A stretch of 64,000 nt of DNA from an uncultured delta proteobacterium. Lineage in GTDB: Bacteria > Desulfobacterota > Desulfobacteria > Desulfobacterales > JAFDCJ01. The DNA is taken from contig CAVYNY010000022.1 of assembly GCA_963769935.1 (NCBI GenBank), positions 1-64,000 of the forward strand, given 5' to 3'. The translations under genes were made by a program, and so were the position numbers. Under the pieces are notes generated by a model, which saw only the letters and a program-made list of their open reading frames with translations, was not told where the DNA came from and searched no databases. Shown here in pieces: positions 43,676 to 48,594 of the stretch; positions within the stretch are counted from its first letter, which is position 1, and each line of letters begins with the position of its first letter.

Positions 43676-44065
43676 ATGGGTGTCGAAAATATTGTATGGG
43701 GTGAAGACTGTATTTTGGCATCGCCAAACCCTGATAAGCCGGCCGCAGCACAGGGGAGAATGAAAACCTGGGCGCGCGGAGAAGCGAAAATACCCTTTAC
43801 CGGACAATTGGAGAGATATTCCTATATTCCTATCAATCAGGTTGAGCCGTATGAAAAACGCGGATTAGGCGGCGTAAGACCGCTGGCCTGGTATTATCCG
43901 TTGCCGGGAGGGGCCTGGTGGCGCAGGCGGATGGGCGGCTATCCGGAATATTCGACCGAGGCCCCGGTCCGAGTATTTGGCAGGTACGGTGAATTTTTAA
44001 AGCAATTACATGATGCACAGTATTTACCGGGCCTTCCACGGCGTCTATATTTCATCAGATCCTGA
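43676..44065 (+). CDS. Hypothetical protein or gene fragment
   Basis: 129-codon ORF in an otherwise empty gap; no recognised motif. Confidence 0.3.
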   Translation: MGVENIVWGEDCILASPNPDKPAAAQGRMKTWARGEAKIPFTGQLERYSYIPINQVEPYEKRGLGGVRPLAWYYPLPGGAWWRRRMGGYPEYSTEAPVRVFGRYGEFLKQLHDAQYLPGLPRRLYFIRS

Positions 44066-44294
44066 AAACGCTGCGGTGGTGCTAAGCGACCCCAATCCGT
44101 GAATCAGCAGACGGAAGCAGTTGCGTCTAAAGGCCCGGGGCAGCCGTCGCAAAGAAAATCTGATTGTCGCTTCCATTTATTTAGCGCGTTGCTTGCCGGG
44201 CGCGGGAAGGTCCAGACGGCGATTTCAGGAATGAAGGTCGATATCGGATCGACGGCAGGGTCTGCTAATATGACTTCTAAGGGAGGTAACTAAA

Positions 44295-44861
44295 ATGCAG
44301 GAAACTAAAATAAATTGGCTAAACGATTATGAGGAAGGCTACGGACGTGCCCGCGAGGAAAAGAAGCCGCTGTTTCTCGACTTTTTCAAAGACGGGTGAA
44401 ATGGCTGCGCCAAATTGGGTGCCGTGACGTACCCGGACAGACAGGTCGCAGCCCTGCTCAACGAAAATTTTGTTCCCGTCCAAGTCAACATCGAAAAGGT
44501 TGCTAAACTGGCGGATGAATTTCAGGCTCTCTGGACCCCCAATTTGAATGTGATCGATGGCCGTCAAAAGCGGGTATACTGGGTTGAGGGTTGGCTGCCG
44601 CCGTCCGAATTTGCGGCCATGCTGGGCGTTGCGCAGGGACACTATTTTCTGCGGGGCAAAAAATACACGGAAGCCGCACCGCTTTTCAAGGCGGTGTTTG
44701 AACAGAATCCCCGCAGCCAATTCGCCCCGGAAGCTCTGTATTACAGGGGCGTCAGCCGCTATTTGAACTCTCATAAAGTCGACGAACTCAAGGAAGACTG
44801 GATCATGCTGCAGCGCTTTTATCCTCAGAGCGCCTGGAGCCTGCGTTCCAACATACTGTGA
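44295..44861 (+). CDS. Thioredoxin-fold selenoprotein (UxxC) with C-terminal TPR-like helices
   Basis: RBS GGGAGG, ATG 44295; MQETKINWLNDYEEGYGRAREEKKPLFLDFFKDG-TGA(44397)-NGCAKLGAVTYPD, in frame with ORF 44415..44861. Confidence 0.85.
44403..44453 (+). promoter_or_regulatory. Candidate bacterial SECIS hairpin
   Basis: GGCTGCG...CGCAGCC lower stem; GGGTGC-CGTGAC-GTACCC upper stem-loop; loop starts ~23 nt after the UGA. Confidence 0.6.
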
Positions 44862-45069
44862 GCAAACCGCGAAGATAAAAATGCAATCAATCCGGGCAGG
44901 TCTCCGCAGCGAAGTGCGGGTCTCCCTCGGGCTGCATGCCGGCTGCTGTTGCCCGACTTCGCACGTGAAACTTCACCTGGACCTAACAGCGAACCGCTGA
45001 ATAATGAACCCTTGAATCACGCTAAAGACATGATCGGACGACCCGAATTGCGAAAAAGGGAGATGATAA

Positions 45070-45432
45070 ATGAACCAAAGGGATTCAAATTACTTTAAAA
45101 GACGACTCCGGCAATGGCTGGAGTCGCTGAAGCAGCAGGCCGGCAACACTGTCAGCTATTTCAGGCAATACGACGAGCGTTCAGCGGACCCGCTGGATCA
45201 GGCAACCCTCGAATACGAACGCAATTTTGCGCTTCGAATTCACAACAGAGAGGATTTGCTTATCAGGAAAATCAAGCAATCCTTGCGGGATATCGAAGAC
45301 GGCGTATACGGGTTCTGTGAGGCGTGCGGCAGCCCGATCGGCGTAAAAAGATTAAAAGTCCGTCCAGTTGCCCGCTATTGTATCGAATGTAAGACCGTGG
45401 CCGAAAAAAAGGAGCGGGTTTTTGGCCTTTGA
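45070..45432 (+). CDS. dksA: DksA-family RNA polymerase-binding protein
   Basis: ADPLDQA tip; CEAC...RLKVRPVARYCIECK. Confidence 0.88.
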   Translation: MNQRDSNYFKRRLRQWLESLKQQAGNTVSYFRQYDERSADPLDQATLEYERNFALRIHNREDLLIRKIKQSLRDIEDGVYGFCEACGSPIGVKRLKVRPVARYCIECKTVAEKKERVFGL

Positions 45433-45992: not shown

Positions 45993-46170
45993 AAAATTGG
46001 CAGAAAATCTCTTAGCTCAATCTGATCGAATACATTTCTTCTCTTCCGCGTGGTGATCGAAAAAGAGCTTGGCGAGAGCTAACATCGAGATTTATGAATT
46101 TCATTAACCGACCCAATGCTGATGCAATAGCCATAAAAGATATGTTTATTGAGAATTGAAAGTCGATTCC

Positions 46171-48594
<2,424 letters not shown>

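Follow-up and report, generated by a model that had tools for sequence, protein, structure and literature searches.

A gene of a known predicted thiol:disulfide interchange selenoprotein family, truncated in annotation at its putative selenocysteine codon, in an uncultured member of the Desulfobacterales

The window, by which we mean the whole stretch of 64,000 nucleotides that was analysed, contains a complete gene on its plus strand at positions 44295-44861, consisting of 188 codons and a terminal TGA (44859-44861). A Shine-Dalgarno-like GGGAGG, read directly from the plus strand at 44281-44286, is located 8 nt 5' of the ATG start codon (44295-44297), and AGGAGG-like sequences precede the aligned start in most orthologues. 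Translation from this ATG yields 188 residues and meets a single internal stop, a TGA at codon 35 (44397-44399), which is the predicted selenocysteine (Sec) codon and corresponds to U35 of a U-N-G-C38 motif in the context ...LFLDFFKDG-U-NG-C-AKLGAVTYPD.... The mechanical ORF list of the region contained only a TTG-initiated ORF of 148 aa at 44415-44861 on the same strand, which ORF callers report in place of the gene and which is not a separate gene. The strong ribosome binding site and ATG, the single TGA at codon 35 and the truncation of the gene in the ORF track had all been described in the original prediction, and inspection of the sequence confirmed each of them. A minus-strand ORF at 44319-44774 (151 aa) was regarded as a shadow ORF of this gene. 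A promoter scan yielded 4 promoter-like sites, compared with 1.5 expected, but no such site was near the gene start, and a terminator scan found no terminator-like site on the plus strand.

The surrounding genes have no evident link to the selenoprotein gene. They include an unknown ORF of 129 aa (43676-44065) on the upstream side and, on the downstream side, genes for a DksA-like protein (45070-45432) and a response regulator that stands alone (46156-46557), an ORF of 296 aa (46547-47437) with no more than a partial PPDK_N (ATP-binding) domain, and a gene for an ArsP-type permease (47383-48594). The PPDK_N ORF, which follows the response regulator, overlaps the start of the permease gene by 55 nt. 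The permease was considered as a Sec form of a listed selenoprotein transporter family and rejected, its frame being open with no in-frame stop. In an all-against-all BLAST comparison of 23 loci, no neighbour within about 1.5 kb was shared by more than three loci, antisense shadow ORFs excepted. The protein had been suggested to act as a redox partner in a stress island; since no neighbour is conserved within 1.5 kb in these 23 loci the suggestion is unsupported, and the idea of an operon or stress island was dropped.

Homologues were collected by six-frame searches that read through stop codons, in 401 genomes of the order and then in 401 genomes sampled across the phylum. In the order, a single TGA was present in each of 22 full-length matches (the gene itself included), and one more full-length match had none. 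For the phylum we used a profile built from the order-level matches (alignment A2), which found the gene in 83 of the 401 genomes at E<=1e-25; among the 92 matches listed, 82 had one TGA and 10 had none. We extracted 44 TGA forms (22 + 12 + 10) and 11 stop-free forms as DNA. The TGA column was identical in all of the former, within a G/x-U-x-G/Y-C motif, and the sequence flanking the TGA was conserved on both sides. The same column was occupied by Cys in 10 of the 11 stop-free homologues (4 CxxC, 5 CxxS and 1 CxxT) and by Glu in the eleventh. A search for related loci in a collection of genome contigs returned only 2 loci.

Shorter matches with one TGA, extending from profile position 1-2 to 141-145, were observed at G544:C42:8943-9368, G479:C41:6951-7376, G659:C11:51985-52422 and G574:C173:1463-1885. 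They accompany a full-length match as a second match in genomes G544, G479 and G574 and represent the sole listed match in G659; they may be paralogues without the last helices.

When 1.84 billion protein representatives were searched exhaustively with a profile, 288 proteins were identified at E<=1e-30, the best 150 of which were classified into 58 full-length (180-250 aa), 50 short (117-158 aa) and 42 longer multi-domain proteins. Most of the short proteins among these 150 start at profile position 37. The 58 full-length proteins in the same set had Cys at the Sec column in 49 cases (43 CxxC, 5 CxxS and 1 CxxT), Ser in 6, and Asn, Glu and Trp in one case each. The original prediction had proposed a search for homologues with Cys or a conserved TGA at this position, and had held that a non-Cys residue there would speak against it. 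Both expected forms were recovered, and Cys prevails among the full-length representatives as it does in the stop-free DNA homologues.

Serine at the first redox position (SxxC) was seen in the 6 full-length proteins P0117, P0135, P0145, P0163, P0200 and P0233, an arrangement that is likewise present in E. coli CnoX. Given these SxxC members and those with CxxS (5) and CxxT (1), the family is likely, as judged from its sequences, to include single-cysteine variants. The full-length homologue P0197 carries Trp at the Sec column (FFNPG-W-GGC), which may stem from a genuine TGG codon or from a TGA that a gene caller rendered as Trp under a different code.

RNA folding placed an extended stem-loop 3' of the TGA, at 44403-44453 of the plus strand (MFE -24.7 kcal/mol), in which an outer stem pairs 44403-44411 with 44444-44453 and an apical stem pairs 44415-44422 with 44429-44436. 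The conserved apical hairpin (44415-44436, plus strand), which is the predicted SECIS core, has a loop, CGUGAC (44423-44428), that begins 26 nt after the U of the UGA and has G as its second base. The stability of the fold in the window sequence was modest in comparison with shuffled sequences (z -1.97; 5 of 200 shuffles folded equally well), and because the single sequence barely beats chance, the weight of the hairpin comes from its relatives. When a 32-nt segment 3' of each TGA was folded, the loop began 26-27 nt past the U in 42 of the 44 TGA forms, and every one of the 44 had a G as its first or second loop base, the loops being of the types CGUGAC, GUUA, AGUUAC, GGUC, GUCA and GCUA. The 44 TGA forms had a mean MFE of -9.3 kcal/mol in this segment; that of the 11 stop-free forms, from which the apical hairpin is absent and several of which still encode the TYPD peptide, was -2.7 kcal/mol. 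The two exceptions among the TGA forms, L077 and L079, fold another hairpin, the loop of which lies 19 nt 3' of the U and which may represent an alternative register of the SECIS in their clade.

The criteria of bSECISearch place the apical loop at a distance of about 16-37 nt from the UGA, with a G among its first bases, and the position and loop G of the predicted hairpin fit this description of a bacterial SECIS element. In an alignment of 22 related sequences (A1), a helix of 7 pairs was paired in 90.3% of the cells, and compensatory changes were seen at pairs 22-37 and 23-36, with both sides changed in 2 and 8 of the 22 sequences, respectively. The covariation score of these sequences was 0.254 compared to 0.162 in shuffles and was reached by none of 500 shuffles, but a control in which the 3' arm was slid by -2 scored 0.301, with 67.5% of the cells paired. 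Only 2 of the 7 pairs covaried, a count that was matched by 106 of the 500 shuffles. The sequences compared are also related to one another, and the conservation of the hairpin is partly at the protein level, because the stem overlaps the codons of the conserved peptide (G/D)AVTYP. A permissive Rfam scan of 43800-45300 gave no match. The hairpin with G second in its loop had been part of the original prediction; folding reproduced it, and it is conserved with covariation in the relatives.

The source genome (8.0 Mb in 41 contigs) encodes the machinery for selenocysteine incorporation, the lack of which had been named as evidence against a selenoprotein. We identified selA (430 bits, with a broken frame), selB (382.6 bits), a tRNA-Sec (75.4 bits; called by ARAGORN as tRNA-SeC with anticodon TCA) and two full-length copies of selD, located at C20:157619-158545 on the minus strand and C7:116160-117080 on the plus strand (377 and 370 bits). 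Each selD copy has one in-frame TGA, for which reason selenophosphate synthetase would itself be a selenoprotein in this genome, and a duplicated one.

With these data the identity of the residue inserted at codon 35 can be considered. The UGA might be recoded to something other than Sec, either to Trp or Gly through near-cognate read-through or an alternative code, or to Cys when selenium is scarce, and the Trp at this column in P0197 is in line with such recoding. However, the homologues overwhelmingly have Cys at the site, not Trp or Gly, the SECIS-like hairpin accompanies the TGA forms only, and tRNA-Sec, selB, selA and selD are all present. Furthermore, a TGA also ends this gene, so that the codon does not generally serve as a sense codon in this organism. 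We consider insertion of a residue other than Sec to be improbable.

The best Pfam match of the predicted protein was to Thioredoxin_2 (PF13098; 2e-12, 47.8 bits against a cut-off of 27), followed by Thioredoxin_7 (1.6e-11) and Thioredox_DsbH (4.2e-10). These thioredoxin-type matches span residues 3-110, and a sub-threshold match to TPR_16 covers residues 113-157. No NCBIfam model reached its cut-off for this protein; among the weak matches were DsbD, YbgF and three curated selenoprotein families of the Trx7 type. AlphaFold2, run on alignment A2, produced one model with a pLDDT of 92.1 and a pTM of 0.88, in which a thioredoxin fold (residues 1-100) is followed by five TPR-like helices (residues 103-184). 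In the model, a strand at 26-31 is followed by U35, which is situated directly before a helix at 36-45, and W80-T81-P82, nearly invariant in alignment A2, is at the usual place of the cis-proline loop. Structural matches of the thioredoxin domain were 3f9u (Z 14.4), 2ju5 (Z 13.1), 3ira (Z 12.4) and 1vrs (Z 12.0), while the C-terminal domain matched TPR domains of the BamD/YbgF type (5efr, Z 13.6; 2xev, Z 13.1) and resembles those of BamD, YbgF, YfgM and co-chaperones. A thioredoxin fold running into TPR-like helices had been proposed at the outset and was borne out by both Pfam and the AlphaFold2 model. The natural Cys form P0105 retrieved only generic thioredoxin-like or TPR clusters from several phyla in the ESM Atlas. 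The N-terminus, MQETKINWLNDYEEGYGRAREEKK, is polar and on inspection contains no hydrophobic stretch, for which reason the protein is likely to be cytoplasmic and to have no signal peptide. Its fold and motif point to selenol/thiol-disulfide oxidoreductase as the likely role.

The predicted fold bears on the possibility that the TGA is a true stop, in which case the locus would encode a 34-residue peptide and a separate TPR protein of 148 aa with a crippled thioredoxin domain, translated from TTG 44415. This is how ORF callers and public annotations present the gene: all of the 103 relatives found in a word-indexed search of 5.8 billion proteins were 105-150 aa long and covered at most 78% of the query, indicating that they were called from just after the TGA, and NCBI-annotated genomes name the relatives 'thioredoxin', 'tetratricopeptide repeat protein' or 'hypothetical'. 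The terminal stop of the gene is also a TGA. On the other hand, the 34 residues N-terminal of the TGA are conserved among orthologues, and a comparison with 7 relatives over 29 codons 5' of the TGA gave 56, 34 and 117 substitutions at codon positions 1, 2 and 3, respectively; since substitutions favour third positions, this stretch evolves as coding sequence in frame. A product of 148 aa would have neither the active site nor strand 1 of the fold, which is predicted as one unit (pLDDT 92), the stop-free homologues are colinear with the whole gene and have Cys exactly at the TGA column, and the ribosome binding site stands before ATG 44295, not before TTG 44415. Termination at codon 35 thus appears slightly less probable still than recoding to another residue.

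In the assembly, the frame of selA changes three times within approximately 320 nt (contig C22, about 678,980-679,310). For comparison we used contigs from four public sequencing runs, three from DNA libraries and one from an RNA library, which represent related strains or possibly the source sample and are therefore not a fully independent line of support. At positions 2386, 2652 and 2698/2699 of the selA locus (L017), the contigs of all four runs had one letter fewer, for which reason the frame breaks are probably assembly indels, that is, single-base insertions. Other broken genes in the genome, including those in the window, may be artefacts of the same kind. At the selenoprotein gene, a DNA contig of run X1 spans 44150-44614 with 0 differences. 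Two metatranscriptome contigs from related strains, X7 (44273-44479) and X8 (44345-44575), had no listed change at 44397-44399, although contigs from RNA libraries do not by themselves prove transcription. None of the runs compared had indels within the gene. The view that the TGA arose from an error in sequencing or assembly, or marks a recent pseudogene of a Cys-form gene, could appeal to the selA indels in the same assembly but is very hard to maintain given the same single TGA in 82 of the 92 phylum-level matches listed, the identical DNA contig, the runs free of indels in the gene and the intact, conserved frame 3' of the TGA.

The selenoprotein interpretation of the original prediction is supported by the agreement of the TGA/Cys column, the conserved hairpin and the Sec machinery. 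We assign a probability of about 0.88 to the reading that 44295-44861 is one gene of 188 codons, in which TGA35 would be decoded as Sec by means of the hairpin, and that its product is a likely cytoplasmic oxidoreductase of a described family.

Judged by its sequence, the gene belongs to the known predicted selenoprotein family 'thiol:disulfide interchange protein' and is not new. In its available portions, a 2022 review (PMC9312934) lists this family with pfam13098, a UxxC motif and the representative WP_011366075.1, and a 2026 inventory places it under 'predicted with high confidence' rather than among the verified families. The tables of both inventories, as far as they are available, credit the family to one reference each, numbered 12. 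A 2006 survey (PMC1794560) reports it, in the part accessible, from Geobacter metallireducens, G. uraniumreducens and Syntrophus aciditrophicus. The supplements of the deep-Sep study (PMC12013277, available portions) print the sequences of the representative and of a Syntrophotalea acetylenica member, which are about 190 aa long with ...DFFNPG-U-IGC... or ...DFWFDG-U-LGC... at the Sec site. The sequence of the family is not described in the available portions of PMC1914089, PMC1242214 and PMC1976440.

The protein predicted here resembles the family, to the extent that its published description is accessible, in length (about 190 aa), in Thioredoxin_2 as best Pfam match, in the ...DFFxxG-U-x-G-C... 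context and in phylum. It also shares the WTP loop and the C-terminal APEA(I/L)Y...YPxSxW helices, and the printed sequences are colinear with it by eye, with the landmarks WTPT, APEA and YPxSxW in common. The formal homology link runs via a stored relative, L082, which has an 11-residue stretch in common with WP_011366075.1 and, with an E of 5e-40, is 35% identical to the window protein across 183 columns. The named Cys and truncated forms belong to Geomonas, Geobacteraceae and Syntrophaceae, in agreement with the published distribution. Reference 12 of the inventories is reportedly Kryukov and Gladyshev 2004, in which year the family is said to have been first predicted. The Sec site reads KDG-U-NGC in the window protein and NPG-U-IGC in WP_011366075.1, a difference at the clade level only. 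The family name evokes a periplasmic protein of the Dsb type, whereas the window protein has a polar N-terminus, no apparent signal peptide and a TPR-like domain; neither this domain nor the absence of an export signal is mentioned in the accessible parts of the published family listings that we examined.

Among proteins of known structure, DsbD gamma and DsbH/Thioredoxin_7 (DUF255-type) folds were the best structural matches to residues 1-120, and one of these, 1vrs_E, matched the window protein with a Foldseek E of 2.8e-7. The window protein has no membrane domain and no apparent export signal, has Sec in place of the first Cys and carries an extra TPR-like domain, and its score against the NCBIfam DsbD model was 28.8 bits, far below the cut-off of 330. 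The VPGUxxT family (NF041383/NF041382), the Trx7/PDZ selenoprotein (NF041199) and TsoB (NF045694) are likewise Thioredoxin_7-like, with Sec in or beside the redox motif, but differ in their motifs (UxxT, CxxU) and partner domains; the Trx7-type selenoprotein models scored 29.6 against a cut-off of 275, 27.6 against 300 and 29.1 against 805.

The same domain order, with an N-terminal thioredoxin followed by TPR, is found in the cytoplasmic CnoX (YbbN) of E. coli and Salmonella and also in plant TDX. The CnoX/YbbN structures 3qdn and 3qou matched the window protein with Foldseek E values of 2.7e-7 and 5.3e-7 over 187-192 columns, with an rmsd of about 11 A and a TMq of 0.41-0.44. This poor superposition indicates that the domains are arranged differently, and the window protein has 188 aa compared to about 284 aa for CnoX. 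No match to CnoX/YbbN was obtained at the level of sequence families in Pfam and NCBIfam, and 3qou and 3qdn were outside the top 50 rows of the structure comparison. The likeness is probably an analogy of architecture rather than a sign of membership.

By the established bacterial Sec pathway, SelB with Sec-tRNA(Sec) would bind the apical hairpin at 44415-44436 while the ribosome is on the UGA at 44397, and Sec would be inserted at codon 35. This would place U35 where helix 1 of the thioredoxin fold starts, with T81-P82 as the usual cis-proline loop. U35 could then attack substrate disulfides to give a selenylsulfide that would be resolved by C38, so that the U35/C38 selenylsulfide redox pair would reduce or exchange disulfides. 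The C-terminal TPR-like domain (103-184) might dock a protein partner or client, as fold and motif hint; this is the least supported step.

The original prediction had called the selenoprotein hidden. This holds for automatic annotation, but not for the literature, where the family has already been described as a predicted selenoprotein. It is common in the phylum (83 of the 401 sampled genomes) and its relatives are truncated, and for these reasons the family is systematically mis-annotated and absent from counts of the selenoproteome that are based on annotation of this kind.

For the biology, the gene is a further member of a selenoprotein family whose prediction dates back two decades. Its modelled architecture is more suggestive of a cytoplasmic redox protein of the thioredoxin-TPR type than of the Dsb-type protein implied by the family name, and the thioredoxin and TPR-like domains, the apparent absence of an export signal and the preference for Sec provide a starting point for experiments. 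A bolder and doubtful extension, which we offer tentatively, is that this cytoplasmic thioredoxin-TPR protein is a small selenium-dependent chaperedoxin and not a periplasmic Dsb-type enzyme, which would hold clients on its TPR-like domain while their cysteines are protected or reduced via the selenylsulfide. The phylum keeps the gene almost only in its Sec form (82 of the 92 matches listed), and if the chaperedoxin reading is true, this near-exclusive use of Sec would mean that the chemistry demands selenium.
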